DNA from: an uncultured Chloroflexia bacterium
GTDB taxonomy: Bacteria > Chloroflexota > Dehalococcoidia > GIF9 > UBA5629
Assembly (NCBI GenBank): GCA_963775935.1
Contig: CAVZKR010000006.1
Coordinates: forward strand, 111,198 to 175,197
Direction: 5' to 3'
Length of the DNA: 64,000 nt
Every line of letters begins with the position of its first letter. Position 1 is the stretch's first letter. Shown piece after piece: positions 11,781 to 52,357 of this stretch. A program made the position numbers and the translations under genes. Below the pieces are notes generated by a model that made no database searches, was not told the DNA's origin, and worked only from the letters and a program-made list of their open reading frames with translations.

Positions 11781-11807
11781 TTTCACGACATAATAAGTGA
11801 GGGAGAA

Positions 11808-12995: not shown

Positions 12996-13073
12996 CAGTG
13001 CGCTATAAGCTAAATGTGCTAGGGCGTAATCACATAAAACATACTATTGCCTTTATTTTTAGGAGGTCGGAGC

Positions 13074-14222: not shown

Positions 14223-14243
14223 TATAAAAAAGGTGACTAAGGA

Positions 14244-15389: not shown

Positions 15390-15484
15390 ACACGTTAAGA
15401 TTTGATAGCAAACTATATATAGTATGCACTATCAAGAAACTACTAAATTAATAAAATGACATTTTCTTACCAAGAAGGGGGTAT

Positions 15485-16723: not shown

Positions 16724-16770
16724 ACTGAATAGAGAAATGTCAAAATATAATTTTTATAGGAGCGATTACA

Positions 16771-18171
16771 ATGGCAATTTTAAAAGTACCCAAGAAATGG
16801 GATAGTGAAGCTGATGTCATCGTTATAGGTGCAGGAACTGCAGGTCTACCGGCTGCTATTACAGCAAGTGATAAGGGAGCAAAAGTAGTTGTACTGGAAG
16901 TCTGGTCTGGCATGGCCAGTAGTCTAGCTATGATTGCTGGCGGGACACCTTTTGCAGGCGTGGATTTGCAAAAAGAAAAAGGCATAGAAGATTCCTCTGA
17001 CAAGCTTTTTAAAGAAGCCGTTGAGACCAGTTGTGGCTCACCAGAACTGTGGAGAGCAATAACTGACAGACAATTGGAAACTTATGAATGGCTTAAGTCA
17101 ATAGGTGCTAAGCCGTCTCAATTACTTCTTGGCCCTGGACATAAGGTGATGCGATCAATCCGGTTTGAAGGGCATGGTCCAGCACTTCTTAAATTATTTC
17201 GAAAAACAGCCGAGGCCAAAGGAATTAGCATCTTGTTTAATCATCGTGCTGAAAGGCTGATCTATAATACTGAACTTGGCAGGATTACCGGTGTCAGAGT
17301 TAAAAGTAAAGATAAAATTATGAATTTAAGAGCCAGGAAAGCAATTATCCTGGCTACAGGTGGTTTTGTCAATAATAAAGAACTTATTAAAGAATATGGC
17401 CCCAACTATGTCGACTGTATCCCCACAGCACCACCAACCCATGTGGGGGATGGGCTGAAAATGGCGTTAGCCGTTGGTGCTGCGACGGAAGGCATTGGAT
17501 TAGCTGTGTGTCCCTCTATGTCAGTAGACATCCATTCCAGACGTCCAGTATTGATGGGAGCAGAAGGTGGAATTCAGGTAAAAACGGACGGTAATAGATG
17601 GACTAACGAGATGCCCACACCCCCCGCCTCCTACACTAGTGGATATAAAGAGCTTCTCCTCCAAGACCAATCAGGTGATCACTTTGTGATGTATGACGAA
17701 AAGGCCAGACGAAGTGCACCGCCTCAAAGTTATCAGATATCTAAAGAATTTTCTGCGAACACTATTGGCGAATTGGAGAAAATTCTAGGTATTGCCACTG
17801 GGGCTCTAAAGGCAACAATAAATGAATATAACTCAGATATTGACACATATGGTTATGACAGGAAATTTGGTAGAAGGCAGAAGGGATTGGCTGATTCGAA
17901 TGAGCCTCCATCAAAGCTCGATACACCACCCTTCTATGCTATTAAGTGCAAGGTTTGTCTCACCTCTATGAAAGGCGGGGTAAAAATCAATGCGAAAGAC
18001 CAGGTTATCGATCAGTTTGGCGACGTAATACCAGGACTATATGCGGCTGGAGAGATAATCGGTGGTCTAATGGGTAAACCGGCGCACTATTTTACAGGAG
18101 CCATGACACTTAGTGCCTTTGTTCAAGGCAGGATTGCTGGAGAAAATGCAGCTGCTGAAGTTTCCAGATAA
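16771..18171 (+). CDS. FAD-dependent oxidoreductase (FAD_binding_2; soluble fumarate-reductase / KstD-like)
   Basis: 466-aa ORF with dinucleotide fold DVIVIGAGTAGLPAAITA, ILATGGF, and C-terminal GLYAAGEIIGG, typical of this flavoprotein family. Confidence 0.8.
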   Translation: MAILKVPKKWDSEADVIVIGAGTAGLPAAITASDKGAKVVVLEVWSGMASSLAMIAGGTPFAGVDLQKEKGIEDSSDKLFKEAVETSCGSPELWRAITDRQLETYEWLKSIGAKPSQLLLGPGHKVMRSIRFEGHGPALLKLFRKTAEAKGISILFNHRAERLIYNTELGRITGVRVKSKDKIMNLRARKAIILATGGFVNNKELIKEYGPNYVDCIPTAPPTHVGDGLKMALAVGAATEGIGLAVCPSMSVDIHSRRPVLMGAEGGIQVKTDGNRWTNEMPTPPASYTSGYKELLLQDQSGDHFVMYDEKARRSAPPQSYQISKEFSANTIGELEKILGIATGALKATINEYNSDIDTYGYDRKFGRRQKGLADSNEPPSKLDTPPFYAIKCKVCLTSMKGGVKINAKDQVIDQFGDVIPGLYAAGEIIGGLMGKPAHYFTGAMTLSAFVQGRIAGENAAAEVSR

Positions 18172-18210
18172 ACGCCATACTCATGTAACTAAAAACGAAA
18201 AGAAAATGAA

Positions 18211-19572
18211 ATGAAGTGGCAGGACAAATACAGAAATAAGTTGATAACGGCAAAGCAATCGGCTGAGCTCGTAACCAATGGGGCCGACGTGCTATTTTCC
18301 ATGATGGATCAACCAGGGGATATTATTCTGGAAATTAGTAATCGATATCAGTCCCTGAAGAATATAACTTTGACCTCACACTGGGTGGCAGATTATCCAT
18401 TTCTGCATCCTAAACAATATCCTGAAATGGCAAAAACATTTATAGTAAAGGACCCAATGACTTTACGAACAACACGGGAAGCAGTCCGCGATAAGACAAT
18501 AGATTGGCAACCAACTGTTTTTGGGCTTAGCAATGGTGAGCGGCAAAAGTGTACTGATCGGGGACGGTTATACCATCATAAGGATTTTTTCTTTTTCAAG
18601 CTTACTCCTCCAGATGACAACGGCGATTGCAGCTTTGGTCCATATACTTGGTATTCACCAAACGCTTGCAAGACAGCGAAACTGAAGATTGCAGAAATTG
18701 ATCCTCATCTCCCACGAGTAAATGGTGACTCTGTAAACATTGAGAGCATTGACTATCTTGTCGAAGCTCCTAAAGCAGAAGACACAGGGAGAAAGGAAGT
18801 TTTAGGATTTACTCCATCTAAGGAGGAGTGGGAAATTTCCCAGGTCATTGGTGCTAATGCTGCCTCTTTAATTCAAGATGGAGACACCCTACAGATTGGA
18901 GTCGGGACATCATCTGAGGCAATTACCGGTTTCCTTGCAGATAAAAACGATCTTGGTTTTGATAGCGAAGTAATCTATGTCGAACTTGTTGACCTGGTTA
19001 AACGCGGTGTTATTAATGGCAGGAAAAAAAATATCGACACGGGGATAGCGGCCAGCTCTTGTCTGCAGATATATGGACGTAATACACCTGCCAGCAACGA
19101 AGCGCTCGCATTTGTGAAGGGAAACCCCAGTTTTATATTCAGAGATATCTCCACCCAATGTAATATTGCCAGAATTGCCTCGCAGAATAATATGGTTGCT
19201 ATAAATAGTATTTTGAGTGTAGATCTTCTGGGACAAGTTGTTCTTACTCATATTGGTCCAACCCCGATAGGTGGCCCTGGAGGACAAATAGAGTTTTGCA
19301 TCGGTGCACACTATTGCAAAGGAGGCCGCTCGGTGTCTATGTTAAAGTCCACAGCTGTTGACGGAAAAGCATCAAGGATAGTGCCCAAATTTGAAAAGGG
19401 AACTGTGATTGCAATTCCCATGTTTTACTTAGATTATCTGGTAACTGAGTTTGGTACCGTAAACCTTGACTGCAAAAGCCGGCGGGAAAGGGCTGAAGCT
19501 ATCATATCAGTCGCCCACCCCGATTTCCAGCCGGAGTTAAGACGAGCAGCCAGGGAAATGTTCTATCCATAA
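18211..19572 (+). CDS. Acetyl-CoA hydrolase/transferase family protein (4-hydroxybutyrate CoA-transferase-like)
   Basis: 453-aa ORF. LQIGVGTSSEA and GGPGGQIEF motifs are characteristic of family I Cat1/AbfT-type CoA-transferases. Confidence 0.8.
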   Translation: MKWQDKYRNKLITAKQSAELVTNGADVLFSMMDQPGDIILEISNRYQSLKNITLTSHWVADYPFLHPKQYPEMAKTFIVKDPMTLRTTREAVRDKTIDWQPTVFGLSNGERQKCTDRGRLYHHKDFFFFKLTPPDDNGDCSFGPYTWYSPNACKTAKLKIAEIDPHLPRVNGDSVNIESIDYLVEAPKAEDTGRKEVLGFTPSKEEWEISQVIGANAASLIQDGDTLQIGVGTSSEAITGFLADKNDLGFDSEVIYVELVDLVKRGVINGRKKNIDTGIAASSCLQIYGRNTPASNEALAFVKGNPSFIFRDISTQCNIARIASQNNMVAINSILSVDLLGQVVLTHIGPTPIGGPGGQIEFCIGAHYCKGGRSVSMLKSTAVDGKASRIVPKFEKGTVIAIPMFYLDYLVTEFGTVNLDCKSRRERAEAIISVAHPDFQPELRRAAREMFYP

Positions 19573-19596: not shown

Positions 19597-21057
19597 TTGC
19601 AGACAATTGAAGAACTAATAAACATCGTCGGCAGTCAAAATGTCTACGATGATCCTGAAATACTTTTGTCATATGCACGAGATCAGAGCTTTTATACTCC
19701 TCATATGCCTCATTATGTAGTTAAGCCGAAGAATGCAGATGAAATTCAAAAAATCATTAAACTGGCGAATACAATCAAAATGTCAGTGATACCATGTAGT
19801 TCGGGCATTCACTTTTACGGTAATACGATTCCAAGTATGGGTGGTATCGTACTAGATTTACGACGGATGAATCAAATTCTAGAAATCGATACAAAAAGTA
19901 AGATGGCAAGAATTGAGCCCGGTGTGACCTGGGGGCAGTTGCAAACTGAACTCGCATCGCATGATATGTTCGCCTTCTGTCCGCTTCTTCCTCATCCACT
20001 GAAATCGGTTGTCACTAGTCACCTAGAAAGAGAACCCGCGCTTATACCAAAGTTTGAATACGCTGGAAGTATGGTGACGTTGGAGGTGGTCTTACCAGAC
20101 GGTGAGCTATTTAGAACTGGTTCTGCCTGTGTACCCGGTTTCCCCGATGAATGTCTGACAGAAGGGGCATTTCCGGGAGGACCAGGGGATATTTCCTGGA
20201 ATTGGCTTCTACAGGGCGCCCAAGGAACGCTGGGTGTGGTAACCTGGGCACAAGTCAAAATAGCGCCCTGTCCAAGAACTAACAAAACATATATTATCCC
20301 GTTTGAACGTATTGAGGATGCTATTCAGTTAGTGTATAACGTGCAGAAGCGTATGATAGGAGAGGAATGCCTGATACTCAATTCTTTCAATATGGCTACT
20401 ATCCTGGCTGACAAATGGCCTCAGGACTTTAATAGTCTCATAAAGAAGCTTTCACCATGGATAGTAATCCTGATATCCGGTGGTGGTTGGCGACTCCCTG
20501 AAGGAAGAATAGAATATGAGACCCAGGGACTCCACGAAGCTGCAGCAGAATTACATATCCCTGAACTGCCAGTAACCATACCCGGTATACCCGGCATAGA
20601 AAAAGATTTGCCTAGGATGCTTCGTACTGCATGGACTGAAAAAAAACCTTACTGGAAATTTGCCTATAAGGGCAATTGCCAGGATCTTTTTTTTCACACC
20701 ACACTTAATAGAACACCAGAGTTCGTTCGGCATATTTGCCGAATAGCAGCTCGTTACGATTACACTAGCAATGATATTGGTTTCTATATTCAACCCCTAG
20801 AATATGGTCGTGCCTGCCACTTCGAAAGTAACTTCACCTATGATTCAAATAATCTTGCTGCTATAGATAAGGTTCGTAATCTTTTTGCTGAAGCTGTTGA
20901 AACTACTCTTGATATGGGTGCTTTCTACACAAGGCCTTATGGAATAGTATCCAATATGGTTTATGAACGTACCGCAAGCTATACAATAGCTCTGCGAAAA
21001 CTGAAGCAGCTAATGGATCCCAATAATATTATGTCCCCCGGTAGATTATGTTTTTAG
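19597..21057 (+). CDS. FAD-linked oxidase (FAD_binding_4 / GlcD-VAO family)
   Basis: 486-aa ORF with TTG start after GGGGAGG. PCSSGIHFYG, RIEPGVTWGQL and C-terminal DPNNIMSPGR are typical of GlcD/D-lactate dehydrogenase-like flavoenzymes. Confidence 0.8.
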   Translation: MQTIEELINIVGSQNVYDDPEILLSYARDQSFYTPHMPHYVVKPKNADEIQKIIKLANTIKMSVIPCSSGIHFYGNTIPSMGGIVLDLRRMNQILEIDTKSKMARIEPGVTWGQLQTELASHDMFAFCPLLPHPLKSVVTSHLEREPALIPKFEYAGSMVTLEVVLPDGELFRTGSACVPGFPDECLTEGAFPGGPGDISWNWLLQGAQGTLGVVTWAQVKIAPCPRTNKTYIIPFERIEDAIQLVYNVQKRMIGEECLILNSFNMATILADKWPQDFNSLIKKLSPWIVILISGGGWRLPEGRIEYETQGLHEAAAELHIPELPVTIPGIPGIEKDLPRMLRTAWTEKKPYWKFAYKGNCQDLFFHTTLNRTPEFVRHICRIAARYDYTSNDIGFYIQPLEYGRACHFESNFTYDSNNLAAIDKVRNLFAEAVETTLDMGAFYTRPYGIVSNMVYERTASYTIALRKLKQLMDPNNIMSPGRLCF

Positions 21058-21087: not shown

Positions 21088-22344
21088 TTGAACATTGAAG
21101 AATATAAACATCAAGCGTCGACATGTGTACGGTGCAGCTTCTGTAAGTTTATCGATCTTAACTGGATTAAAAGCGATAAATTTTCTCGACAGTGCCCAAT
21201 AAATACACGATACAAATTTAATCTCTACTCAGCCCACGGATTAATACATTCAGCGTTAGCTGAGCTGGATAGCAAGCTTGAATTCACCCCAAAACTGATG
21301 GATGCCTTATGGAAATGCAACCTTTGTGGTGGTTGTGACATGCGATGTAAGAGAAATCTCGATGTTGAGGTGTTGCAAGTAATTGAGACTCTGAGGCGGA
21401 GATGTGTCGAAAAAGGAAAGGGCCCGCTAGCTGAGCATAAAATAATAGCCGAAAATGTTAAAACCAGCCACAACATATACGGGGCTGACCAGAAAGGCCG
21501 ACTAGCCTGGATATCGGGTGATATCAAACCATCAAAAAGTGCTGAGTTGCTTTTCTTCGTCGGTGATCCCATGTCTTTTCGACACACAGAATTAGCTAGG
21601 ATAACCCTAAAACTGCTGAATAAGGCGAAGGTACAATGTATGGTATTGGATAATGAATGGAGTAGCGGCCATGAACTTTTTGCAACTGCCCAATTGGAAT
21701 TAGCTAAAGAAATGGCTGAACACAATATAGAAGCTATTAAAAACTCAGGCGCAAAAACGGTTATTACTAGTGATGCGGAATGTTACAAGACTCTTAAGGT
21801 AGACTATCCAAAGATTATGGAGAAATCAACCGAAGATATGCCATACAAAATTCTTCATATTACCGAATATTTTGACCAGCTGATTAAAGATGGTAAGTTC
21901 AAATTCACAAAAGGTGTTCCGATGAAGGTGACCTATCATGATCCCTGTAATTTGGGAAGACTTGCTGAGCCCTGGTTTCACTGGGTACCGAATTATAAAC
22001 CACCTAATATCGCCGTAGGTAAGACATGGAGACGAGGTGACAAGGGTGTGTATGATCCTCCGAGGAATATACTTAAGGAAATCTCAGGAATAGAGCTTGT
22101 TGAGGTAGAAAGAGCTAAAGATAATGCTTGGTGCTGCGGGTACGGTGGTGGAGTAGGAATAGCATTTCCAGATTTTGCCAGATGGGTCACCAGCAAAAGA
22201 ATTGACGAGGTCCTCGCAACAGGAGCTGAGGCGGTTGTAAGTTGTTGTCCTCATTGCAAGAGCATGTTTGGCACAGCCGCAAAAAAAATGGAAACAGCCT
22301 TAAAAGTGTATGATATTACCGAGATAATGCTTCAGGCAGCTTAA
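21088..22344 (+). CDS. Fe-S oxidoreductase with 4Fe-4S motifs and CCG domains (GlcF / HdrD / LutA-like)
   Basis: 418-aa ORF with CVRCSFCKF..CP and CNLCGGCDMRC cluster motifs, plus YHDPCNLGR and WCCGYGGG cysteine-rich (CCG) domains. Confidence 0.8.
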   Translation: MNIEEYKHQASTCVRCSFCKFIDLNWIKSDKFSRQCPINTRYKFNLYSAHGLIHSALAELDSKLEFTPKLMDALWKCNLCGGCDMRCKRNLDVEVLQVIETLRRRCVEKGKGPLAEHKIIAENVKTSHNIYGADQKGRLAWISGDIKPSKSAELLFFVGDPMSFRHTELARITLKLLNKAKVQCMVLDNEWSSGHELFATAQLELAKEMAEHNIEAIKNSGAKTVITSDAECYKTLKVDYPKIMEKSTEDMPYKILHITEYFDQLIKDGKFKFTKGVPMKVTYHDPCNLGRLAEPWFHWVPNYKPPNIAVGKTWRRGDKGVYDPPRNILKEISGIELVEVERAKDNAWCCGYGGGVGIAFPDFARWVTSKRIDEVLATGAEAVVSCCPHCKSMFGTAAKKMETALKVYDITEIMLQAA

Positions 22345-22357
22345 TAGACGAAAGGAG

Positions 22358-23842
22358 ATGGCGATGAGCCTGTCAAAAGAGATTTACCAAACGTTAGAAT
22401 CTATTGTTGGGCCTGAATGGGTGAGCGATGATCCTGCAATATGCGAAGCAGACCGATTTTGCAACTCTGTTGCTATACCAGTGGCACCATATAGGCCAGC
22501 ATGCAGTATAGAACCAGCCAATAGTGAAGAGGTACAGGCAATTGTTAAAGTAGCAAATAGATATAGAGTGCCCTTCATTGCCACAAGTACTTTCTACGCA
22601 CCAGAAACTCATGCTAGAAGAGAAAACTCGATTCTAATAGATTTGAAAAGAATGGACAAACTGGAGATAGATGAAGAAAACCTATATGCCGTAGTTGAAC
22701 CGGGCGTTTGTTTCTCAGTTCTTCAAGCTGAGCTATTGAAGAAAAACCTTTTTACATTTGTACCCGGCTGTGGCGGCAATGCTTCGGTATTAGCGAATAC
22801 AATTAATATGGGTGATGCACCACTTGGATGGAGACATGGATTGGGCTATCAGAGAATATTAGCTGCTGAGTGGGTTCTCCCAGACGGAGAGATGCTACAG
22901 TTAGGTTCTCGGTCCTTATCTCAAAACTTTTTCTGGGGCGAAGGTCCTGGTCCCGACCTCCGTGGTCTATTGAGAGGAAGCAGGGGCCAGAGGTCGCGGC
23001 TCGGCATAGTGACTAAGTTAGGTGTAAAAGTATTTCCGTTTATCTCCGAGAAACTCGAGCCGCAAGGATGGGCATATCATACTTCAATGAAATTGCCGGA
23101 TAACAGACTCAAGTGGTACAACATTATGTTCTCTAAGAAAGAGGATGCTGTTAACGCAATTTGTGAGCTCGGCAAATGTGAAATAGGGTTAATTGTCATG
23201 ACAGTGCCACCACTTTTTAGGGGCATTGCAAGAAGTCGAGGTGTTGGTTGCGGTGGATTCTGGGAATACTGGCTTGAAGCCGGGCCCAAATTAGATCCAA
23301 ATCAGGAAGTTCTCAGGGTTCTCCTTTATGGAATAGGCTCCAGTAAGCGATTAGGCTATGAGGAAGAAGTACTGCTTGATATCTGTAAGGCATATAATGG
23401 ACAGGCGCGACCTGCACGAGGTATTGATGAGACGAATTTTATGGCCGCAGATGCCATTTGTGCCGCGGTTGTCGGCGGTCGATTTACTTCTGAGGTGGCT
23501 TATGAATCCATGAACCTTGCGCAGAAATACAGCGTCATTATTAATGAGGTAACAAATAGGCATAAACCCCCAATATTAGAAGATTACGGGACAACCAATT
23601 GGATTTGCCCATATGAATTAGGTTATGTGGTCAAGTTAGAATGTCTGAGAGTAGCATCAGCAGAAGATGGTCAAGCACTAATGGAATTTGTGGAAGATGC
23701 TTTCAATACTTGCCTTAAGGTAGGTGCCTTCACTCTACACCCCGAGCCCGATTTATTTGGTCCAGTTTGGGAAAACTATCATGTGAAAGAAAGAAGAATT
23801 AGGCAAGCTTTTGATCCAAATAATGTTTCATTCCCTGAATAG
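22358..23842 (+). CDS. FAD-linked oxidase (second FAD_binding_4 / GlcD-VAO family member)
   Basis: 494-aa ORF (ATG 22358, or 22364 with better GGAG spacing). VVEPGVCFSVLQAEL and C-terminal DPNNVSFPE. Confidence 0.8.
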   Translation: MAMSLSKEIYQTLESIVGPEWVSDDPAICEADRFCNSVAIPVAPYRPACSIEPANSEEVQAIVKVANRYRVPFIATSTFYAPETHARRENSILIDLKRMDKLEIDEENLYAVVEPGVCFSVLQAELLKKNLFTFVPGCGGNASVLANTINMGDAPLGWRHGLGYQRILAAEWVLPDGEMLQLGSRSLSQNFFWGEGPGPDLRGLLRGSRGQRSRLGIVTKLGVKVFPFISEKLEPQGWAYHTSMKLPDNRLKWYNIMFSKKEDAVNAICELGKCEIGLIVMTVPPLFRGIARSRGVGCGGFWEYWLEAGPKLDPNQEVLRVLLYGIGSSKRLGYEEEVLLDICKAYNGQARPARGIDETNFMAADAICAAVVGGRFTSEVAYESMNLAQKYSVIINEVTNRHKPPILEDYGTTNWICPYELGYVVKLECLRVASAEDGQALMEFVEDAFNTCLKVGAFTLHPEPDLFGPVWENYHVKERRIRQAFDPNNVSFPE

Positions 23843-23888: not shown

Positions 23889-26540
23889 GTGATACCGAAA
23901 AAAAACAATCCAAAACGAGAAACTGTAGGAGAAAAAAGCATAGTAAAAGGGCTCGGTTTTTGCTCGGTTATGTCAGATTCAAATGTATCTGTCGTTGATG
24001 TTAAAAACGGAAAGATCGTCAGGATCAGACCCTTACACTATGACTGGAAGTACAATGATTTAAAGCCATGGCAGATGGAAGCACGTGGTCAGTTATTTAA
24101 GGCAACGACGAAGTCTTTAATACCTCCTTTTGCTTTAGCATACAAGAAGCGAGCTATTTCACCCAACAGGATACTCTATCCACTAAAGAGAGTGGATTGG
24201 AACCCCAATGGAGAAAGAAATCCACAGAATAGAGGTAATGCTCATTATGTCAGAATTACTTGGGATGAAGCGCTGGACATAATCGTCGGAGAAATAAGGA
24301 GGATTATTAAAACCTATGGACCTGAGGCAATCCTTGCCCAGTCAGATGGTCACGGCGAAACAAAAACTATTCACGCACCTCATGGTTGCCAGAGACCTCT
24401 TCTTATGCTTCTCGGTGGGTATACAATGCAGCTTCGGAATACGGATAGCTGGGAGGGATGGTATTGGGGAGCTAAACATATGTGGGGATGTGAACCACTC
24501 GGGCAAATGTCTCCATCAACAAATACATTTCCAGATGCGGCTGAAAACACGGAGCTCATGTTGTTTTGGGGTTGTGATCCAGAAACTACGACGTGGGGCT
24601 GGCAAGGACAATTGTCCAGCAAATTGTGCTATTGGTTTACGGATCTGGGGATAAAACAAATATATATATGTCCTGACTTAAATTATGGGGCCGCGGTTCA
24701 TGCGGATAAGTGGATTCCTATTTTACCAAATACCGATACCGCTATGCGCCTGGCAATAGCTTACCAGTGGATTGTCGAAGGCACTTATGACAAAGACTAT
24801 CTAGCCACGCACTCCTTCGGTTTCGATAAATTTGAAGCTTATGTATTAGGCAAAGAAGATGGAATACCGAAAACTCCTAAGTGGGCCTCAGAAAAAACCG
24901 GAGTTCCATCTCGTATTATTAAAGTATTGGCCAGAGAATGGGCAAGGAAAAGTACCTCAATTATGCACTCAAACGGAGGTCCCGCCATCAGAGGACCTTA
25001 CGCAACTGAAGCGGCCAGGTTGGAGGTCTGCCTGCTGGCCATGCAGGGACTGGGCAAACCTGGAGTACACCAGATTAAATTTATCGAATGGGGTCTTTTC
25101 AGCGAGCCATGGCAATATCCTTTACCCGCGGGGGTAGAGCTTCCAGATGTATTTGCTGCTTGTCCTGGGCAGCGATCAGCCTTAGCCGCAGAGATGAAAG
25201 GCTTGATTACGCTGGATGAAATAAGAGACCAGAGTATACCTAAACAACATATACCCAAAACTCACATTCATGATGCTATTCTCGACCCGCCTTTGAAGTG
25301 GTATGGCCATGGTGATGCGGGTCAACCAGTGACAGACCAGTTTATTGAATACAAATATCCGGCAGATGGATGTTCTGAAATACACATGATCTGGACCGAT
25401 ACGCCATGTCTAATGACGTGCTGGAATGATAGTAATAGTACTGCGAAGGCATACCAAAACTCCAAAATCGAGTTCATTCTCGCCCAGCATCCATGGATGG
25501 AAAATGACTGCCTTTTCGCCGATATCATTCTACCTTCCAATACTAAATTTGAAACTCCGAGTGACATTTCAACCGATGTTTTTAGCGGCCAATTTCATAG
25601 TATCGTCCTTGAAGAACAATGCATAAAACCTGTGGGTGAGTCCATGAGTGATTATGAGATTGTATGCAAAATAGCTGAGCGTATGGGCTTACTGAAGGAA
25701 TACACCAAGGGTAAATCAAATGAAGAATGGATTCGATTTGGCTATAAGACTTCTGGTGTGGCACATATGGTAAGCTGGGATGAACTTGAGGATAAGAAAT
25801 ACTGGGTAGTACCTGTGAATCCTACATGGGAAAAAAATAAGCCAGGATTGAGAGCCTTTTTTGAAGATCCTGCGAATAATCCTCTAACAACACCTTCAGG
25901 GAAAATTGAGTTCTATTCTCAAAATTTAGCCAAGTACTTTCCTAATGATATCGAAAGGCCACCCGTGCCACATTGGATTGAAAAGGGTGAGAGTCACGAT
26001 GAGAGCATATCCAGCGAAAGAGCCAAACACTATCCCTTGCTTTTAATGTCAAATCACGGACGCTGGAGGTTGCATGCTCAACTTGATGATATCACCTGGT
26101 TCAGAGAAATCGAAACCTGCAAAGTAAGAGGGGATGACGGTTACCTCTACGAACCTGCGTGGATTCATCCCAAAACTGCAGAAGAGAGAGGTATTAAGAA
26201 CGGTAATATCGTTAAGGTTCTTAACGAGAGAGGAACTGTCCTTTGTGGGGCTTATGTAACAGAAAGAATTATGCCAGGTGTTGTCTACGTAGACCATGGC
26301 GCCAGATATGATCCAGTAGTTATAGGAGAACTTGATAGGGGTGGCGCAATAAACACTATTACTCCGCACAATTGTACCTCGAAGAATACAGTTGGTATGG
26401 CTATCAGTGGTTTTCTCGTCGAGGTTGAACGGGCTGACCTCGATGAATTGAGAAGGAAATATCCAGAAGCATTTAATAGACCATACGATCAGGTATCTGG
26501 TCTGAAATTTGAGAGAGTATTAGTTCGAGGTAAAGGCTAA
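23889..26540 (+). CDS. Molybdopterin (bis-PGD, DMSO-reductase superfamily) catalytic subunit, pyrogallol-transhydroxylase-like, copy 1
   Basis: 883-aa ORF, GTG start after GGAGG. Superfamily blocks DSWEGWYWGAKHMWG, ADKWIPILPNTDTA, FILAQHPWMENDCLFADIILP, and the C-terminal barrel GNIVKVLNERGTVLCGAYVTERIMPGVVYVDHGA. Only one Cys in the first 60 aa and no RR motif. Confidence 0.85.
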   Translation: MIPKKNNPKRETVGEKSIVKGLGFCSVMSDSNVSVVDVKNGKIVRIRPLHYDWKYNDLKPWQMEARGQLFKATTKSLIPPFALAYKKRAISPNRILYPLKRVDWNPNGERNPQNRGNAHYVRITWDEALDIIVGEIRRIIKTYGPEAILAQSDGHGETKTIHAPHGCQRPLLMLLGGYTMQLRNTDSWEGWYWGAKHMWGCEPLGQMSPSTNTFPDAAENTELMLFWGCDPETTTWGWQGQLSSKLCYWFTDLGIKQIYICPDLNYGAAVHADKWIPILPNTDTAMRLAIAYQWIVEGTYDKDYLATHSFGFDKFEAYVLGKEDGIPKTPKWASEKTGVPSRIIKVLAREWARKSTSIMHSNGGPAIRGPYATEAARLEVCLLAMQGLGKPGVHQIKFIEWGLFSEPWQYPLPAGVELPDVFAACPGQRSALAAEMKGLITLDEIRDQSIPKQHIPKTHIHDAILDPPLKWYGHGDAGQPVTDQFIEYKYPADGCSEIHMIWTDTPCLMTCWNDSNSTAKAYQNSKIEFILAQHPWMENDCLFADIILPSNTKFETPSDISTDVFSGQFHSIVLEEQCIKPVGESMSDYEIVCKIAERMGLLKEYTKGKSNEEWIRFGYKTSGVAHMVSWDELEDKKYWVVPVNPTWEKNKPGLRAFFEDPANNPLTTPSGKIEFYSQNLAKYFPNDIERPPVPHWIEKGESHDESISSERAKHYPLLLMSNHGRWRLHAQLDDITWFREIETCKVRGDDGYLYEPAWIHPKTAEERGIKNGNIVKVLNERGTVLCGAYVTERIMPGVVYVDHGARYDPVVIGELDRGGAINTITPHNCTSKNTVGMAISGFLVEVERADLDELRRKYPEAFNRPYDQVSGLKFERVLVRGKG

Positions 26541-26551
26541 TCACAAAGACT

Positions 26552-26641
26552 ATGATCGTCGACATCACCCGGTGCAATGGTTGCCATAACTGCCCAATTG
26601 TTTATGAGTACGAGTGTATACTTGATGAAGGGAGCCAATAG
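26552..26641 (+). pseudogene. 29-codon relic of a 4Fe-4S ferredoxin-type beta-subunit gene
   Basis: ATG 26552 to TAG 26641 translates MIVDITRCNGCHNCPIVYEYECILDEGSQ. This is the characteristic N-terminus (VDxxxCxGCxxC) of DMSO-reductase-family beta subunits. It is too short for a full subunit, and the RBS of the next gene lies inside it. Confidence 0.5.
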
Positions 26642-26643
26642 TA

Positions 26644-29298
26644 ATGCCAAAATATAGACCTAAAAAGAACACCAGAGAGAAAAAATCATGTCTGAAGGGT
26701 ATTGGCTTTATAGCTTCCGGTAGCGGTGATGCCAATACCTCTGTGATCGATATAAAAAACGGCAGGATAGTCAGGATCAGGCCACTACATTTTGATTGGA
26801 AATACGACAAGAAGGAATTCAATCCCTGGAAGATGGAGGTACGAGGACAGAGCTTTGAACCGAAGATGAAATCACTGATACCTCCCTACAGTTTGTCATA
26901 TAAAAAGAGAGTTTACTCTCCTAACCGCATCCTTTATCCCTTAAAAAGAGTTGATTGGAATCCACATGGCGATAGAAACACAACGAGCAGAGGTAAGAGC
27001 GGCTATGTCAGAATTTCCTGGGATGAGGCTCTAGAAATAATTGTGAGCGAGCTCAAGCGAGTGAAAGAAAAGTATGGTCCAACAGCCATACTTTCCCAGT
27101 CTGATGGACATGGGGAAACAAAGGTTGTGCATGGCCCACACGGCTGTGCCAATAAACTGCTTAGTCTGCTTGGTGGTTATACGATACAGACCAGGAATCC
27201 AGATAGCTGGGAGGGATGGTACTGGGGTGCCAAGCACGTCTGGGGATGTGAGCCGGTAGGGCAAATGGAGCCAACGATTAATGCGATGCCTGATATTGCT
27301 GAGAATAGCGAGCTTCTGTTGTTCTGGGGATGTGATGCGGAAGCTACACCCTGGGGTTTTGACGGACAAATGGCCAGTCGCTTGTGCTACTGGTTTACTG
27401 AACTTGGAATAAAATCGATTTACATTTGCCCGGATGTAAACTACGCTGCTGCAGTTCACGCTGATAAGTGGATCCCGATAAGACCAGGCACTGACGCTGC
27501 ATTACAGTTGGCTATTGCATATGTCTGGATTACTCAAGGAACCTATGATAAGAAGTATATAGCTACTCATTCGGTTGGATTCGATAAATTCGAAGAATAC
27601 GTGTTAGGTAAAGAAGATAAGATTGCCAAGACACCCAAATGGGCTGAAGAGAAAACGGGTATCCCTTCTAGAATAATTAAGGCGCTGGCAAGAGAGTGGG
27701 CCTCAAAGCCGACTTCGATAGCACATGGTAACGGTGGCCCCGCCATCCGAGTGGCATATGCAACTGAAAACGGCAGGCTTGAGATTTTGTTGTTAGCAAT
27801 GCAGGGATTAGGGAAGCCTGGTGTTCACCAGGTCAAAATGCTGGAATGGGGACGGAGGAATGAAAAGATAACTGAACCCATGCCCCTGAGCAAGATACTT
27901 CCCAAAGTGTCATCGTCTTATAGGGGAGCTTTGTTTGCTGTAGGCCCGAGACAGAAAGGAGAGGCTGCCATATCGGAAAATCTGGCCGAGCTTCCCACCC
28001 AAATCATTCCCAAAGATCTCATTCATGACGCATTGTTGAATCCGCCGATCAGCTGGTACGGAACCACCCTCTCCCGTTCTCCTGTGGAAGACCAGTTTAT
28101 AAAGTATACGTATCCAGACAAGGGCTGCTCTGAGATACACATGATATGGACTGATTCACCTTGCTGGATAACCTGTTGGAATGATAGCAATTCCTACATC
28201 AAAGCACTGAGAAGTCCGAAAATAGAATTTATTTTAGCGCAACATCCATGGCTAGAAAATGACTGCCTTTTTGCAGATATCATTCTACCGGCAAGCACCA
28301 AATTCGAACAAGAGGATATCCAGTCAGACATCATGGGCGGGCAGGTTCGTCTAATTTTCAAGGAAAGGAAATGTGTTGAACCGATAGGGGAATCCAGGAG
28401 TGACTATGAGATAGTCTGTATGATAGCTGAAAAATTGGGTTTGCTAAAAGAATATACCGGAGGAATAACTGTTGAACAATTAATAAGGAGCAGTTACGAA
28501 AATTCCGGCATAAAGCCTATGATTTCATATGAAGAGTTTGATGAGAAAGAATACTTTGTCATTCCGACCGATGCCGATTGGAAAAAATACCCCGCAGGAT
28601 TGAGTAAATTCTATGAAGACCCAGAAAACAACCCCTTAACAACGCCAAGTGGTAAGATAGAATTTTATTCCGAGAGATTAGCCAGCCATTTCCCTGGTGA
28701 TAAAGAAAGACCGCCAGTTCCACACTGGATTGAAAAGGGGGAGAGTCATGATGAAAGAATTACCAGTGAAAGAGCAAAACAATATCCCCTGTTGGTTGTT
28801 TCTAACCACCCGAGGTGGAGAGTCCATGCTAATCATGATGATCTGAACTGGGTAAGAGAAATTCCGACATGCAAAGTTACGGGACCTGACGGATACAAAT
28901 ATGAGCCACTCTGGATCAACCCGGCAGATGCTGCATCGAGAGGTATCAACAATGGCGATGTTGTTAAAGTATACAATGAAAGAGGAGCTGTTCTCGGTGG
29001 CGCATATGTAACAGAAAGAATAATGGCTGGAGCTGTATACATAGACCATGGAGCAAGGTATGATCCAATAGTCCCAGGAGAGCTTGATAGAGGTGGCGCA
29101 ATTAACACAATAACACCACATAACACGACCTCTAAGAATGCAACAGGGATGGTCGTCAGTGGTTTTCTCGTCGAGGTTGAACAGGCTGATCTCGACGAAT
29201 TGAGAAGGAAATATCCAGAAGTTTTTACAAGAGAGTATGACAAAGCCTCTGGGCTGAAATTTGAGCGAGTATTGGCTAAAGGAAAAAATGATGGATAA
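26644..29298 (+). CDS. Molybdopterin (bis-PGD) catalytic subunit, pyrogallol-transhydroxylase-like, copy 2
   Basis: 884-aa ORF, colinear paralog of 23889-26540 with the same blocks (DSWEGWYWGAKHVWG, ADKWIPIRPGTDAA, FILAQHPWLENDCLFADIILP, GDVVKVYNERGAVLGGAYVTERIMAGAVYIDHGA). GAAGGGAG RBS. Confidence 0.85.
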   Translation: MPKYRPKKNTREKKSCLKGIGFIASGSGDANTSVIDIKNGRIVRIRPLHFDWKYDKKEFNPWKMEVRGQSFEPKMKSLIPPYSLSYKKRVYSPNRILYPLKRVDWNPHGDRNTTSRGKSGYVRISWDEALEIIVSELKRVKEKYGPTAILSQSDGHGETKVVHGPHGCANKLLSLLGGYTIQTRNPDSWEGWYWGAKHVWGCEPVGQMEPTINAMPDIAENSELLLFWGCDAEATPWGFDGQMASRLCYWFTELGIKSIYICPDVNYAAAVHADKWIPIRPGTDAALQLAIAYVWITQGTYDKKYIATHSVGFDKFEEYVLGKEDKIAKTPKWAEEKTGIPSRIIKALAREWASKPTSIAHGNGGPAIRVAYATENGRLEILLLAMQGLGKPGVHQVKMLEWGRRNEKITEPMPLSKILPKVSSSYRGALFAVGPRQKGEAAISENLAELPTQIIPKDLIHDALLNPPISWYGTTLSRSPVEDQFIKYTYPDKGCSEIHMIWTDSPCWITCWNDSNSYIKALRSPKIEFILAQHPWLENDCLFADIILPASTKFEQEDIQSDIMGGQVRLIFKERKCVEPIGESRSDYEIVCMIAEKLGLLKEYTGGITVEQLIRSSYENSGIKPMISYEEFDEKEYFVIPTDADWKKYPAGLSKFYEDPENNPLTTPSGKIEFYSERLASHFPGDKERPPVPHWIEKGESHDERITSERAKQYPLLVVSNHPRWRVHANHDDLNWVREIPTCKVTGPDGYKYEPLWINPADAASRGINNGDVVKVYNERGAVLGGAYVTERIMAGAVYIDHGARYDPIVPGELDRGGAINTITPHNTTSKNATGMVVSGFLVEVEQADLDELRRKYPEVFTREYDKASGLKFERVLAKGKNDG

Positions 29299-30821: not shown

Positions 30822-32015
30822 ATGCCTTACTTTTTTAGTCCGAAAATATTATATGGAAAGGGTATGTTGAAGAGGCTGGGAAGTGAAATAGCAGGTCATG
30901 GAAATAAAGCAATCATCATTACTGACAAAATTATGGCAAAGACGAGCGACCAGCTTGTCGAGACTATCAAAACTGCCGGGTACGAGGTCAAGATATGGGA
31001 TGGCGCCGAGCCAGACCCCTCTGTCGAGGTAGCACAAGCTGCCAACAAGGCACTTATCGCGTTTGAACCACAGTTAGTAGTTGGCTACGGTGGAGGTTCA
31101 GCCATTGATACAGCAAAAGCGGCATGGGTGCTTTATGAAAACCCCGAGGTAGCTGCTGCTGAAGGAGGCATAGCAGCAGTTAATATTAAAACCAAGTTGA
31201 ACTGGCGCAAGAAAGCTCTGTTTATCACCGTCCCTACTACCAGCGGCACCGGTTCAGATGTAACCTGGGCAATTGTGCTTACTGATAACATAAACCACAG
31301 AAAGATAGGATTTGCAAATAATGAAATCGTGCCTGATATTGCACTTTTGGTTCCAGAGTTTACCAGTGGAATGCCCAGGTCATTAACCGCTAGCACTGGA
31401 ATGGATGTTCTGGGACATGCCATTGACGGGTATACGGCTCGACAGCAAAATGATTTCAGTGATGGTCTCTGTTTACAAGCGGCGAAGATGACCTTTGAGT
31501 GGCTTCCCAAAGCCTGTGCAGATGGAAATGACCTTGTAGCCAGGGAGAAAATGCAGAACGCAGCCACTATTGCCGGGTTAGGTTTCGGCAACAGCAACAC
31601 ATCACTTAGTCATGCATTGGGACATGCACTTGGAGCTACCTTTGGTATACCTCATGGACGAGCCATTGGAATAGCGCTCCCCTATTCTCTGGAATACATT
31701 TCCTCAAATCCTCCTATGCAAGGTGCTCCAGACCCTGTAGAGAGATTAAGTACCATTGCCAGGTTTATAGGAACCAATGCAGGAACTGCACCAGCATCAG
31801 TAAATAAGCTTATTGTGAAAATCCGAGATTTAGCAAAAGACATCGGTGAGCCACTAAGCTTAAAGGAAGCTGGGATACATGAGAGGCAGATGTTAGAGAA
31901 AATAGACCTTCTGGTAACCCTAGCCAGTAAGGATGTCAATATGTTCTCCAGTCCGTGTGAATGCAAGGATGAAAAATTGAAGCAGTTATTTAAGAATATG
32001 TGGGAAGGAAAGTAA
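30822..32015 (+). CDS. Iron-containing (group III) alcohol dehydrogenase
   Basis: 397-aa ORF with GYGGGSAIDTAKA, PTTSGTGSDVT, and the His-rich metal motif LSHALGHALGATFGIPHG. Confidence 0.85.
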   Translation: MPYFFSPKILYGKGMLKRLGSEIAGHGNKAIIITDKIMAKTSDQLVETIKTAGYEVKIWDGAEPDPSVEVAQAANKALIAFEPQLVVGYGGGSAIDTAKAAWVLYENPEVAAAEGGIAAVNIKTKLNWRKKALFITVPTTSGTGSDVTWAIVLTDNINHRKIGFANNEIVPDIALLVPEFTSGMPRSLTASTGMDVLGHAIDGYTARQQNDFSDGLCLQAAKMTFEWLPKACADGNDLVAREKMQNAATIAGLGFGNSNTSLSHALGHALGATFGIPHGRAIGIALPYSLEYISSNPPMQGAPDPVERLSTIARFIGTNAGTAPASVNKLIVKIRDLAKDIGEPLSLKEAGIHERQMLEKIDLLVTLASKDVNMFSSPCECKDEKLKQLFKNMWEGK

Positions 32016-32294: not shown

Positions 32295-33075
32295 TTATAA
32301 CCACTCTGCCCTTGTGGCTGATGCGATAATACTGCAAATACAAAGTCCAGCGAAGACGATGAAAGCTATGCGAATGCTTTGCATGAAAGATGCGTAGTAT
32401 TCAGGTGTAATTGCCGCGTTGCCAATATAGAGTGAAAACAAGAGTATAATAACGCTCATACTGAATGTTATGCCGATATTTCTGGTTGTGGCTTGTATTG
32501 CCGAGGCAACTCCATAATGCTTTCTCTCTACGGAGCTCATTATAGCGTTGGTATTCGGAGATGTAAAAAAGGCATATCCCAAACCGAGTAAAACGAGAGC
32601 AATTATAATGTTTATCAGTCCTTGATTCTCGGTGGCATGGAACAGCAATAAAATCCCGATGAGCACTACCACGATTGCAATCGACACATTTACTCGTGGT
32701 TGTATTCTATCAGAGATTCTGCCGGCTATCGGCGAAGAAATGGCCATGATAGCCGGAGTGATTAACAGGATAAATCCTGCCTCCTGGGAACTAAATCCTT
32801 TTATATATTGTAGGTAGAGGCTCATAATAAATGTTATGGCAAATGTGGCTGTATAGAAGAGAAAATGGGCAAAGCTGCTGAATGCAAACAGGCGATTTCT
32901 GGTGATGAGGCTAATATTGAATATAGGACTTTGACCTTTAATTCCCATGGAATAAATAATATTGCTGCTACGACACCAATTACGATTATCAATATACCCG
33001 ATTGGTTTGGCAGTAATGGAAAACCATAGAGGAGACAAAACAACATTATTGATAGTAATATTGAACCGATAATAT
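32295..33075 (-). pseudogene. MFS transporter pseudogene (N-terminal half deleted, plus frameshift near 32940)
   Basis: Two minus-strand frames (32295-33038 and 32834-33148) together align with residues from about 195 to the end of the intact MFS at 35007-36392 (DIIGSILLSIMLFCLLYGF vs DLIGSIAYILFLLLILYGF; SLYLQYIKGFSSQEAG vs SFYLQYIKGFSPQEAG). The frame switches between IPWE and KGQSPIFNISL. Confidence 0.7.
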
Positions 33076-33079
33076 CAGC

Positions 33080-33682
33080 ATGGAGGAAGGAGCGCTCTTG
33101 GAGCCGGTTTCTGTAGCTTTGCATGGGATTGATCGGACGGAGATCCATCCGGGAAATTTCGTATTTATATCCGGGGCTGGACCAATAGGGATCCTTATGC
33201 TGGAATTGGCTAGATTATCCGGTGCTGCCAAGATTATGGTCTCGGACCCGGTAGCCATTAAAAGGAAGTTGGCACAGGATCTCGGCGCTGATATAACCAT
33301 CAATACTTTACAAGAAGATGTGGAACAAGCCAGTAATCGATTCACTAGTGGAAAAGGCTTTGATGTGGTGTTGGAAGCCAGCGGCAACCTGAAAGCTGTT
33401 AAGCAATCGTTATCTTTAGCTGGAAAGGGCGGCACTGTAGTCTGGGCGGCATCATATCCTTTTGAGGCTGAAGTAGCCATCAATCCTTTTTTTATGTTTG
33501 TTAAAGAACTGACGGTTCGGTCTGTTTTATTGTCTCCTTATTCATTCCCCAGAGCATTAAACATCTTGCCTAAGCTTAACCTGCGACCACTTATCTCCAA
33601 TATTATTCTACTTCAACACATTGATAAAGCTTTTGCTCTCCACAAACAAGGTGACCAGATCAAAATATTAATTAAACCGTAA
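33080..33682 (+). pseudogene. Zinc-type (MDR) alcohol dehydrogenase, C-terminal fragment only
   Basis: 200-aa ORF starts at EEGALLEPVSVALHG, then the Rossmann motif FISGAGPIGILMLELA. The roughly 140-aa catalytic N-terminal domain is absent, and there is no RBS. Confidence 0.65.
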
Positions 33683-36427: not shown

Positions 36428-36450
36428 GGCGATGGAATCGCCTATTTATT
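36428..36450 (+). terminator. Possible intrinsic terminator between convergent genes
   Basis: GGCGAT-gga-ATCGCC hairpin (6-bp stem) followed by TATTTATT. Lies 36 nt after the MFS stop and overlaps the stop of the convergent rdhA-like gene. Confidence 0.4.
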
Positions 36451-37597
36451 CGACAGGCATTTTAGTATCGAACCACCACTTTCGAGCAGGATGTTCTTTC
36501 CGGTGGTCTTTTAAGAAGCTATCAGCTTTGATTGCCACCAACCTAGCTATTAATGACCTTTCAATAGCATTGCGCACAAGGTTATGGTTCCAGGAGTTTG
36601 GCCGTGTCCAAGGACAAATTTTGACACATGTATTGCAGCCATGCCCTTTATTGTTACAAATGAAGAATTGACCGCAACTATCAGCATCCAGTTTCCAAGT
36701 ATAGTATCCATTATACATTGTCTTGTCTCCTGTGGGGATAGCTTTGCTTGGACACATTTCAGCACATAATTCACAGCGCTTACAGAAATCCTGTAGATTA
36801 AAGTCGATAGGTTTATCATCGATTAAGGGTAAATCTGTGAGAACTGCAGCCGCTTTATAGCCTAAACCTAAAAAGGGATTGAGGATTATTCCAGCACGGC
36901 TAACTTCTCCAATTCCTGACCAAAGCAGTAACGGTGGTATTAAAACATCGTAGCTTTGCGCAGCTGGAAGATTGGGTTTGCTAGACATATGCTCGGCCAC
37001 TGCAGAATATCCTAATCGGCGTATATAGTTAGCCATTGTCTGGCTTATCAAAGCCAGATGCTGGTACGGCACATAACTTAATGGTCCTCCTGACCAGTCA
37101 CGTCCGTTGGATGCATACATAGTGTAGTAGTCCTTGCGCTTCACAATCATAATTGCATGCTTATAATTTAAATTTATTGGTTCACCCAGCGAATTCATAC
37201 TATAGTAAGCAGTTGCAGGTACTTGGCCAATACCTACGATATCAGCCTGTAAATAATATCCCAATTGTCTTATATGGTGAGTCAGTAAACCAGGATTATC
37301 TGTTATCTCAGCTTTAACAGGATTAATATTATTTTGAATAGTCTTGCCAAGATGCGCCGTAAGTTCATTCAATGTAGTGGTTATAGGATCTTTAGCGGTG
37401 ATGCTTAAAAACCGTTTCTGTACTTTTGGGCCATAAAGACCACGAGCAGCTTTTCCAAAGGGGCTTTCACCTGGATTTATCCGTTTAACCTGATCGGTGA
37501 TACTATTTGTAGGCCTGTCAACCCTTTTCAAAAGATGTGTAGGGAATCGATCTAAGTTGCTTTCTTTTGAAAGTAATACATTATCAGTTCCTTCCAT
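36446..37597 (-). CDS. Reductive dehalogenase-family protein (RdhA-like), no Tat signal
   Basis: Two C-terminal Fe-S motifs, CKRCELCAEMCPSKAIP and CGQFFICNNKGHGCNTCVKICPW, about 35 aa from the C-terminus as in RdhA. N-terminus MEGTDNVLLSKESNLDRFP has no RRxFLK. Start ATG 37597 (AGAAGG upstream); the track's GTG 37603 is also possible. Confidence 0.7.
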   Translation of the reverse strand: MEGTDNVLLSKESNLDRFPTHLLKRVDRPTNSITDQVKRINPGESPFGKAARGLYGPKVQKRFLSITAKDPITTTLNELTAHLGKTIQNNINPVKAEITDNPGLLTHHIRQLGYYLQADIVGIGQVPATAYYSMNSLGEPINLNYKHAIMIVKRKDYYTMYASNGRDWSGGPLSYVPYQHLALISQTMANYIRRLGYSAVAEHMSSKPNLPAAQSYDVLIPPLLLWSGIGEVSRAGIILNPFLGLGYKAAAVLTDLPLIDDKPIDFNLQDFCKRCELCAEMCPSKAIPTGDKTMYNGYYTWKLDADSCGQFFICNNKGHGCNTCVKICPWTRPNSWNHNLVRNAIERSLIARLVAIKADSFLKDHRKEHPARKWWFDTKMPVE

Positions 37598-37903
37598 TTT
37601 CACCTTCTTACTAAATTATTTACATTAATTGGTTAAGTTGTTGACAATAGTCTGAAATATGCTAGAACGTTTCTCCAAAAATTTACAATAAACCTCAAAC
37701 TAATTTACGTGAGTTACTGAAGTAGAATCTGCTTCTGAATTTTGGCTTAGTAGTTGGCTAGACTGATATAGAATATATAGACATTCATTTTAAGGTTTTC
37801 CATGGCCTGTAGAATTAAGTTGAGCAATAGTATAACTATTGAGGGCAAGTCACTGTGGGAAATAAAAAAGTAGGCGTAACCCATCTTAGGACAGCCTTTA
37901 TTA

Positions 37904-39667: not shown

Positions 39668-39669
39668 AC

Positions 39670-52204: not shown

Positions 52205-52357
52205 GATGAATCTGAACATGGGGTGAATATTGGGCAATTCGATGTTGTGATAATATGGTAAACATACGGAATCTAGTGGGCAGTGATGTCATTTTAAGAT
52301 ATGTGATACCTCTAACCTTCGGAACCAAGAATTTTATAGAGGAAGATGTATTGTTTT

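Follow-up and report, generated by a model that had tools for sequence, protein, structure and literature searches.

Pyrogallol transhydroxylase carries three [4Fe-4S] clusters even though its reaction is net redox-neutral, and the reason for this is an old question. The resorcinol and 3,5-dihydroxybenzoate hydroxylases RhLS of Azoarcus anaerobius and DbhLS of Thauera aromatica AR-1 are alpha-beta enzymes too, and catalyse a net oxidation. Can the catalytic alpha subunit of such an enzyme be kept once the gene of the small, iron-sulphur (Fe-S) beta subunit has gone from its side? The question is raised by a stretch of 64,000 nucleotides (nt) from an uncultured Chloroflexia bacterium (Dehalococcoidia; GIF9; UBA5629), positions 111,198 to 175,197 of contig CAVZKR010000006.1 in assembly GCA_963775935.1, which we call the window. 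It encodes two adjacent homologues, TH1 and TH2, of the transhydroxylase large subunit AthL of Pelobacter acidigallici, and between them lies a relic of a gene for the small subunit, BthL. We lean, if only slightly, towards the reading that TH1 and TH2 are functional, cytoplasmic, Ser-ligated molybdenum (Mo)-bis(molybdopterin guanine dinucleotide), or Mo-bis(MGD), catalytic subunits that have been kept without an adjacent beta gene after its deletion.

The two genes (Table 1) are colinear paralogues of 883 and 884 amino acids (aa), 66% identical over their full length and separated by a spacer of 103 nt (26541–26643), exactly as an earlier, preliminary description of the window had it. The Pfam domains AhtL-like_1st (PF21423; 41.8 and 37.4 bits against a cut-off of 27), Molybdopterin and Molydop_binding all score above their cut-offs in both proteins, in keeping with the bis-PGD superfamily blocks recognized in that description. 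The top solved relative is AthL (also PgtL; 4v4c chain A), which is matched over residues 35–853 with E=2e-146 and 492 bits and is 38–39% identical to the window proteins along its full length. It is also the best match in fold: an AlphaFold2 model of TH1, with a mean predicted local distance difference test (pLDDT) score of 82.5 and a predicted TM-score (pTM) of 0.87, ranked 4v4c_A first in Foldseek (TM 0.84/0.85). The sequence blocks that had been likened to the Pelobacter large subunit are all present and do align to AthL, NPNGERNPQNRG with AthL DPNGERNPQLRG, DSWEGWYWG with DSWEGWHWG, and CIKPVGESMSDYEI / CVEPIGESRSDYEI with CIEPVGESMSDYEI.

Each protein has, as described, a single Cys within its first 60 residues (C25 in TH1, C16 in TH2) and no RR pair in that span, and both open reading frames (ORFs) begin at the first possible start codon 3' of an upstream stop, which leaves no space for an overlooked signal peptide. 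The absence of the FS0 cluster motif and of a twin-arginine translocation (Tat) signal had been counted towards the novelty of the pair. Both absences are the normal state of the AthL family and therefore add nothing to it: domain 1 of AthL is likewise cluster-free, AthL has no Tat signal, and PgtL and RhL are listed as one lineage of cytoplasmic, Ser-ligated enzymes (PMC10100899). Two of the four features presented as unusual are family norms, and the only unusual point of the window pair is the missing beta subunit. Sequence similarity, a cluster-free domain 1, the lack of a Tat signal and a Ser ligand accompanied by His and Asp show the predicted TH1 and TH2 proteins to belong to the transhydroxylase (AthL/PgtL-RhL) family of the dimethyl sulfoxide (DMSO)-reductase superfamily.

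For the active site we rebuilt AthL residues 17–871 from a printed alignment. The AthL residues to which the 2004 structure paper reportedly gives a role (His144, Arg153, Asp174, Ser175, Tyr404 and Tyr560) all match the residue types of the rebuilt sequence, Ser175 being the reported Mo ligand, with Asp174 and His144. Since these numbers fall on the right residues, the Mo-ligand Ser can be placed in the D-S-W-E-G-W block, which the window proteins share with AthL together with the counterparts of His144 and Asp174. The SQSDGHGE segment, in which the preliminary description had looked for the ligand, aligns to AthL 139–146 and holds the His144 counterpart instead. Counterparts of AthL H144, D174, S175, W176 and E177 are invariant in 104 of 104 family sequences. 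In the TH1 model the pLDDT drops below 50 at residues 185–207, around the DSWEGW Mo-ligand block, and at residues 363–367, a second active-site loop, probably because the prediction contains no cofactor.

The surrounding pocket is another matter. Throughout the core family defined below, TH1 and TH2 included, AthL Y152, R153, W354 and F468 are replaced and the loop bearing C557–Y560 is deleted, changes that are robust in both window proteins, where 152 has become A/G, 153 P and 354 G; at AthL position 404 no Tyr is aligned, the loop being gappy and the residue V or P depending on the aligner. The AthL pocket set is kept only in what we term the alpha-prime group, whose members are 50–65% identical to AthL. 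These alignments show that the window proteins share the predicted catalytic core of the transhydroxylase and not its pyrogallol/co-substrate pocket, and with the pocket residues gone TH1 and TH2 would not be pyrogallol transhydroxylases in the strict sense. The idea that they might turn hydroxyhydroquinone into phloroglucinol lacks support for the same reason, and also because phloroglucinol-pathway genes are absent from the neighbourhood: the families concerned (reductase, cyclohydrolase and triacetate lyase; PMC10470551) had no match among the window ORFs scanned. A duplication for two substrates or steps, as previously proposed, finds some support. Divergence between TH1 and TH2 peaks at TH1 401–460 (28–30% identity against 66% overall), the counterpart of the AthL Tyr404 loop, and a maximum in an active-site loop fits what would be expected of different substrates.

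A one-subunit, cluster-free, Ser-ligated Mo-bis(MGD) architecture is also that of the type III enzymes DorA, TorA, BisC and MtsZ, and TH1 and TH2 might therefore reduce S- or N-oxides as stand-alone enzymes in the manner of BisC, DorA and TorA, their likeness to transhydroxylase being superficial. Such enzymes are indeed the next-best matches in sequence and in fold: single-subunit DMSO and trimethylamine N-oxide (TMAO) reductases are the Foldseek runners-up (TM about 0.76), and the only NCBIfam models that match TH1 and TH2, all of them below threshold, are models of S/N-oxide reductases, including TIGR00509 (bisC_fam) at E=1e-113 to 1e-118. However, the 379–397 bits of the latter match fall far short of the cut-off of 1017.55, the best DMSO reductase reaches 279 bits (E=7e-82) against 492 for AthL, identity to these enzymes is about 25%, and they lack the AhtL-specific domain 1 found in the window proteins. 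The residues beside the Mo ligand differ as well. Aligned to DMSO reductase, the window proteins place a His opposite the Trp of the reductase YGW motif, a substitution that is predicted to be of the transhydroxylase type and not of the S/N-oxide-reductase type; His and Asp stand where the reductases have Trp and Tyr next to the Mo ligand. The relic, finally, points to descent of the window genes from an alpha-beta ancestor. We regard the oxide-reductase explanation as very unlikely.

The preliminary description held that no intact ferredoxin-type beta gene exists in the 64 kb. For a gene of the BthL type this stands: none was found in the window, which covers 64 kb of a 217-kb contig, either by a six-frame scan for ferredoxin Cys motifs or by tblastn with nine intact beta proteins of relatives, and none was called on short Logan contigs (run ERR10755944) that reach about 4 kb past the left window edge. 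What had been passed over are other Fe-S proteins of the window, one with Fer4_8 and two CCG domains (21088–22344) and one resembling reductive dehalogenases (RDH; 36446–37603), and the relic in the spacer. The sole beta-like match in the 64 kb lies at 26540–26602 (tblastn, E=4e-5). In the relic frame the spacer reads ITKTMIVDITRCNGCHNCPIVYEYECILDEGSQ, followed by two stop codons, where intact beta proteins start MGKVMIVDISRCNGCYNCQIVCKDEH; the N-terminus of intact beta homologues, MxVDIxxCNGCxNC, is matched by the relic. The beta genes of the relatives are true BthL homologues (4v4c_B, E=9e-54; Fer4_11 and CarboxypepD_reg domains), and some 20–30 of their roughly 270 codons remain in the spacer.

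Position agrees with sequence, the relic lying where beta starts in intact pairs. Its residual ORF, of 29 codons from an ATG at 26552 and reading MIVDITRCNGCHNCPIVYEYECILDEGSQ up to a stop, begins 11 nt past the TH1 stop, beta beginning 0–13 nt past alpha in intact pairs, and ends 2 nt 5' of the TH2 start. When aligned as DNA with five intact alpha-beta junctions, the locus stays colinear from the 3' end of alpha across the junction. Compared with the BthL homologues that adjoin about half of the family's alpha genes, the relic is short and runs into stops; the ancestral ATG (26543–26545) has become ACA, the codon of the fourth Cys, which belongs to the first cluster motif, has become TAT, and a Gln has changed to Pro. 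Codons 1–17 retain 65–69% nucleotide identity to intact beta genes, about the same as the adjoining 3' end of alpha, and codons 18–30 retain 38–51% in an ungapped alignment, with stops thereafter. The relic tail, YEYECILDEGSQ, resembles internal parts of beta no better than shuffled sequences do, and only the first 17–20 codons appear securely homologous to beta. The order alpha-beta-alpha is intact in two related loci, L014 and L025. Taken together, the relic, the colinear junctions and these intact loci show what must presumably have been a deletion of about 0.8 kb that removed beta from between TH1 and TH2.

The relic ORF ends in TAG TAA, and the TAA overlaps the TH2 start codon as TAATG (26639–26646). 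The relic might by now act in TH2 translation as a short upstream ORF. Neither a regulatory RNA nor a terminator was detected in the spacer, which has a fold z-score of +1.1 and no terminator-like sites; promoter and terminator counts equalled the shuffle expectation. A second beta relic occurs in L020 (12658–12759), directly 3' of a TH2-clade alpha gene (76%), where it reads MAKVMIIDITKCNGRYNCQVACGHDPGEPEMVR up to a stop and has Arg in place of one Cys; the locus also contains an intact beta gene, 9 kb upstream. This relic is independent of that in the window, and beta decay has therefore occurred at least twice. Both relics show that local copies of beta are not maintained.

Loss of one subunit could also mean that the whole locus is decaying and that both alpha genes are non-functional leftovers. 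Besides the relic between TH1 and TH2, the truncated neighbours at 32295–33682 and the split gene at 51262–52204 would agree with such decay. It is hard to reconcile with two 2.65-kb ORFs that are intact and retain all invariant family residues, or with orthologues at 70–81% identity that are intact in many genomes in which no beta adjoins them. Moreover, the TH2 stop and the ATGATG start of the following abfD-like gene overlap (29288–29298), and TH2 is predicted to be translationally coupled to that gene. We give this explanation almost no credence; intact ORFs, conserved columns, the TH2–abfD overlap and the lack of a spacer terminator would instead support function.

Is the window pair an isolated case? 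The GTDB representatives searched, among which the window genome does not figure, contain a large family (6110 clusters at E<=1e-20 among scored candidates, the best 120 all being at least 63% identical), and the nearest loci belong to metagenome-assembled genomes (MAGs) of Dehalococcoidales, with 70–83% identity for several genes. Alpha genes of relatives, 102 in all from 79 loci, were sorted by whether a BthL-like gene accompanies them. The tree of these genes, TH1, TH2 and AthL, with no RhL or DbhL sequence among them, was rooted on AthL. AthL and ten alpha-prime genes split at 200/200 bootstrap from a core family of 94 sequences that includes TH1 and TH2. The two would be part of a large sister subfamily of the true pyrogallol transhydroxylases that is known from genes alone.

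Among the 92 core-family genes of relatives, beta lies directly downstream in 31 and upstream in eight, eight are cut off by a contig end, and 45 have no beta; in 37 of the latter the entire locus, of up to +/-10 kb, contains no BthL-like gene. Hence about half of the subfamily in public MAGs has no adjacent beta, and the architecture is not unique to the window pair. The TH1 clade (13 sequences, 200/200 bootstrap) has beta in 0 of 12 loci of up to 22.6 kb, the TH2 clade (17 sequences, 194/200) has it only in L019, and a third beta-less clade consists of 12 sequences from Actinomycetota (199/200). As the TH1 and TH2 clades are beta-less in many genomes, their catalytic subunits have long been maintained without an adjacent beta. 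The partner-less state is common in uncultured sediment bacteria and not confined to the window. A literature search found no paper on beta-less transhydroxylase-type enzymes; the window pair is one instance of a widespread, so far undescribed variant.

The lack of a neighbouring gene does not by itself make this an alpha-only lineage, as the preliminary description proposed. Beta once lay between the two genes, and TH1 and TH2 might still form alpha-beta heterodimers by borrowing a BthL-type subunit from another locus, only a redundant local copy having been deleted. TH1-clade genes are accompanied by an intact BthL-like gene at a different transhydroxylase-like locus in at least five to six MAGs, among them CAZCZJ (L003, L014), CAZPAS (L007, L073), JAGLTT (L004, L027), DUFB (L005, L047) and DATLAD (L012, L035). 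The alpha-alpha-beta operons of L044 and L034 provide a precedent for one beta shared by several alphas, and in L020 the relic-bearing alpha has an intact beta at a distance of 9 kb. Furthermore, beta-linked alphas have 336 conserved columns, of which beta-less clades retain 86–90%; no decayed beta-interface signature was found, a single one of the 336 being lost in two of the three clades and no lost set being shared. On the other side, the TH1-type operon is without beta in 12 loci and in L082, the 37 beta-less alphas counted above have no BthL-like gene in the fetched locus, and in L047, L073 and L035 the only beta retrieved pairs with an AthL-like alpha-prime gene. We think borrowing possible, though we would not expect it.

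The same MAGs, shared-beta operons and conserved columns weigh against our preferred reading, that TH1 and TH2 are kept as functional subunits without an adjacent beta, since a useless beta interface might show common losses and the beta-less alphas show none. Three further points count against it. A beta may be encoded outside the 64-kb window, on the remainder of the 217-kb contig or elsewhere in the genome; the subfamily has been met only as genes, from which its predicted function is read; and the context of AbfD, coenzyme A (CoA)-transferase and acyl-CoA dehydrogenase genes fits no described polyphenol pathway.

A partner may alternatively have been replaced. In the window, electrons could pass to the products of the FAD_binding_4, Fer4_8+CCG and FAD_binding_4 trio of genes, in which case TH1 and TH2 would be net hydroxylases or dehydroxylases. 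The trio shares the TH1 strand, stops 47 nt short of TH1 and co-occurs with TH1 orthologues in six loci (L001, L002, L006, L008, L009 and L012), in five of which a second, diverged trio lies nearby. Replacement does appear to occur in the family: a gene for a nitroreductase-family flavoprotein (PF00881) is found at the 3' end of the Actinomycetota alpha in L059 (2781–3365), L062 (12639–13337), L066 (3394–4026) and L078 (12583–13179), called by Pfam in L059, L062 and L078 and by blastp clustering with those three in L066. With gaps of -45 to +38 nt it occupies the place of BthL, and it is a candidate replacement redox partner in that separate beta-less clade. For the trio the case is weakened by L082, which has a 72% TH1 orthologue in the same operon and no trio. 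In L001-type loci, moreover, three other genes separate the trio from TH1, TH2-clade loci have no such neighbours, and trios of this kind are known as 2-hydroxyacid or alkylphenol dehydrogenases in their own right. We therefore consider re-partnering with the trio unlikely.

If TH1 and TH2 are, as we favour, catalytic subunits kept after the loss of an adjacent beta, the ancestral order would have been alpha-beta-alpha, and deletion of beta would have left its first 20–30 codons as the spacer. Both proteins would have phenolic or similar hydroxylated compounds as substrates, though not pyrogallol, perhaps with one substrate or one step per paralogue. Their reaction, a Mo-centred hydroxyl transfer or hydroxylation, would require no dedicated Fe-S subunit, and its products would feed the CoA-dependent part of the operon. 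The transhydroxylase reaction being redox-neutral, an electron-transfer subunit is not obviously needed and its loss would be tolerable. A bolder claim, that TH1/TH2-type proteins are stand-alone, Fe-S-free enzymes of the transhydroxylase family and that recurrent BthL decay and nitroreductase replacement demonstrate the Fe-S subunit to be dispensable for the core chemistry, we put forward tentatively, as possible and somewhat doubtful.

Table 1. Position and annotation of TH1, TH2, the beta relic and other features of the window.
Feature	Position	Strand	Basis or remarks
TH1	23889-26540	+	GTG start, 883 aa; AthL-family Mo-bis(MGD) catalytic subunit; predicted Mo ligand Ser187, catalytic-type His155 and Asp186
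Relic of BthL-type beta gene	26543-26641	+	tblastn, protein alignment, colinear DNA alignment with intact junctions
TH2	26644-29298	+	ATG start, 884 aa; AthL-family paralogue; predicted Mo ligand Ser188, His156 and Asp187
Low-pLDDT stretches of TH1	~24441-24509 and ~24975-24989	+	AlphaFold2 model
Cluster start	9849-19572	+	LigW-like Amidohydro_2, DUF35/OB, SCP-x-type thiolase, two acyl-CoA dehydrogenases, M24, FAD_binding_2, CoA-transferase
VAO/PCMH/GlcD-like flavoprotein	19597-21057	+	First of trio upstream of TH1
Fer4_8 + 2xCCG Fe-S protein	21088-22344	+	Second of trio, two genes upstream of TH1
FAD_binding_4 protein	22358-23842	+	Third of trio
AbfD-like 4-hydroxybutyryl-CoA dehydratase / vinylacetyl-CoA isomerase	ORF from 29261, likely ATG 29288	+	1u8v_A, E=3.5e-205
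Fe-alcohol dehydrogenase	30822-32015	+	3' of abfD-like gene
M24 protein	15485-16723	+	
Amidohydro_2 paralogues, ~347 aa	4530-5573	-	
	9849-10892	+	
	41847-42893	-	
	48518-49564	+	
	49798-50844	+	
Hydantoinase/oxoprolinase A/B-type genes	2737-4485	-	Acetone/acetophenone-carboxylase-like
	37904-41733	-	Acetone/acetophenone-carboxylase-like
RDH-like protein	36446-37603	-	385 aa
Truncated MFS and Zn-ADH genes	32295-33682	- (MFS), + (Zn-ADH)	247 aa and 200 aa
Split metallo-beta-lactamase-fold gene	51262-52204		Two overlapping ORFs, 162 and 174 aa
Intact metallo-beta-lactamase paralogues, ~310 aa	1765-2691, 5848-6795, 52346-53281		

TH1, the relic and TH2 are held in a same-strand cluster that extends from about 9.8 to 32 kb (Table 1), within a window whose predicted gene content marks it as an island for the catabolism of aromatic or other organic acids. 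The downstream genes recur in relatives, orthologues of the AbfD-like protein (82–83% identical) and of the Fe-alcohol dehydrogenase (68–73%) adjoining TH1 orthologues. The latter, at 70–72% identity, close the same operon in the six loci that have the trio, and in L022 and L082 its upstream half accompanies TH1-type genes; no beta gene was found in the TH1-type operon of any of these eight loci. The M24 protein is likewise kept in the operons of L022 and L082. Its best NCBIfam match is the dimethylsulfoniopropionate (DMSP) lyase DddP, but a reading as such a lyase was rejected: the 92 bits reached stay below the cut-off of 600 and are comparable to the scores of generic peptidase models.

Five paralogous Amidohydro_2 genes form an unusual local expansion of LigW-like genes; the one of the five that was tested (9849–10892) is closest to the LigW 5-carboxyvanillate and gamma-resorcylate decarboxylases. 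In the window and in L013, the latter a TH2-clade locus, the operon is linked to LigW-like decarboxylases, and hydantoinase A/B-like genes neighbour the TH2-clade gene of L020. The phenolic substrates of RhLS and DbhLS fit this LigW-like context of the window pair. A gene for a UbiX-type flavin prenyltransferase lies 3' of TH1-clade genes in six loci (L002:12678–13316, L008:12816–13388, L004, L007, L024 and L026; called by PF02441 in L008 and by blastp clustering in the other five) and hints at a linked, putative UbiD-type aromatic (de)carboxylase; it is absent from the window.

Hydantoinase/oxoprolinase A/B-type genes occur twice in the window, and copies at 57–64% identity are those that adjoin the TH2-clade gene of L020. 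The RDH-like protein has two Fe-S motifs and reaches 148 bits with TIGR02486 (cut-off 160); it has no Tat signal, and an rdhB-like gene was not seen adjoining it. A truncated gene of the major facilitator superfamily (MFS) abuts a zinc-dependent alcohol dehydrogenase (Zn-ADH) gene that is without its N-terminal domain, and their junction, at about 33040–33080, resembles another deletion or rearrangement scar. The first of the two overlapping ORFs at 51262–52204 covers no more than the N-terminal portion of the metallo-beta-lactamase (MBL) fold, of which the window has intact paralogues, and the pair probably represents a frameshifted copy. Elsewhere the window encodes two tripartite ATP-independent periplasmic (TRAP) transporters, MBL-fold hydrolases and an aldehyde:ferredoxin oxidoreductase.

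Transhydroxylase-like genes of sediment Dehalococcoidia were reported in 2013 and 2016 as pyrogallol hydroxytransferases, and such metagenome genes are routinely read as evidence of pyrogallol degradation (PMC3971608, PMC4959651). Most of them form a separate subfamily, in which the pocket differs and about half of the members have no adjacent Fe-S gene, and annotations of this kind therefore over-interpret the substrate. The conserved operon, with its CoA-transferase, AbfD-like dehydratase, Fe-alcohol dehydrogenase, acyl-CoA dehydrogenases and thiolase, gives a search for the substrate a defined target. The beta relics provide a datable, repeatable case of subunit loss in a molybdoenzyme complex, and raise the question of whether the Fe-S subunit of transhydroxylase-type enzymes is needed for catalysis at all. 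Were these proteins indeed stand-alone enzymes, they would bear on why a redox-neutral transhydroxylase has three [4Fe-4S] clusters, and would constitute a large new class of monomeric Mo enzymes acting on phenolics in subsurface Dehalococcoidia and Actinomycetota.

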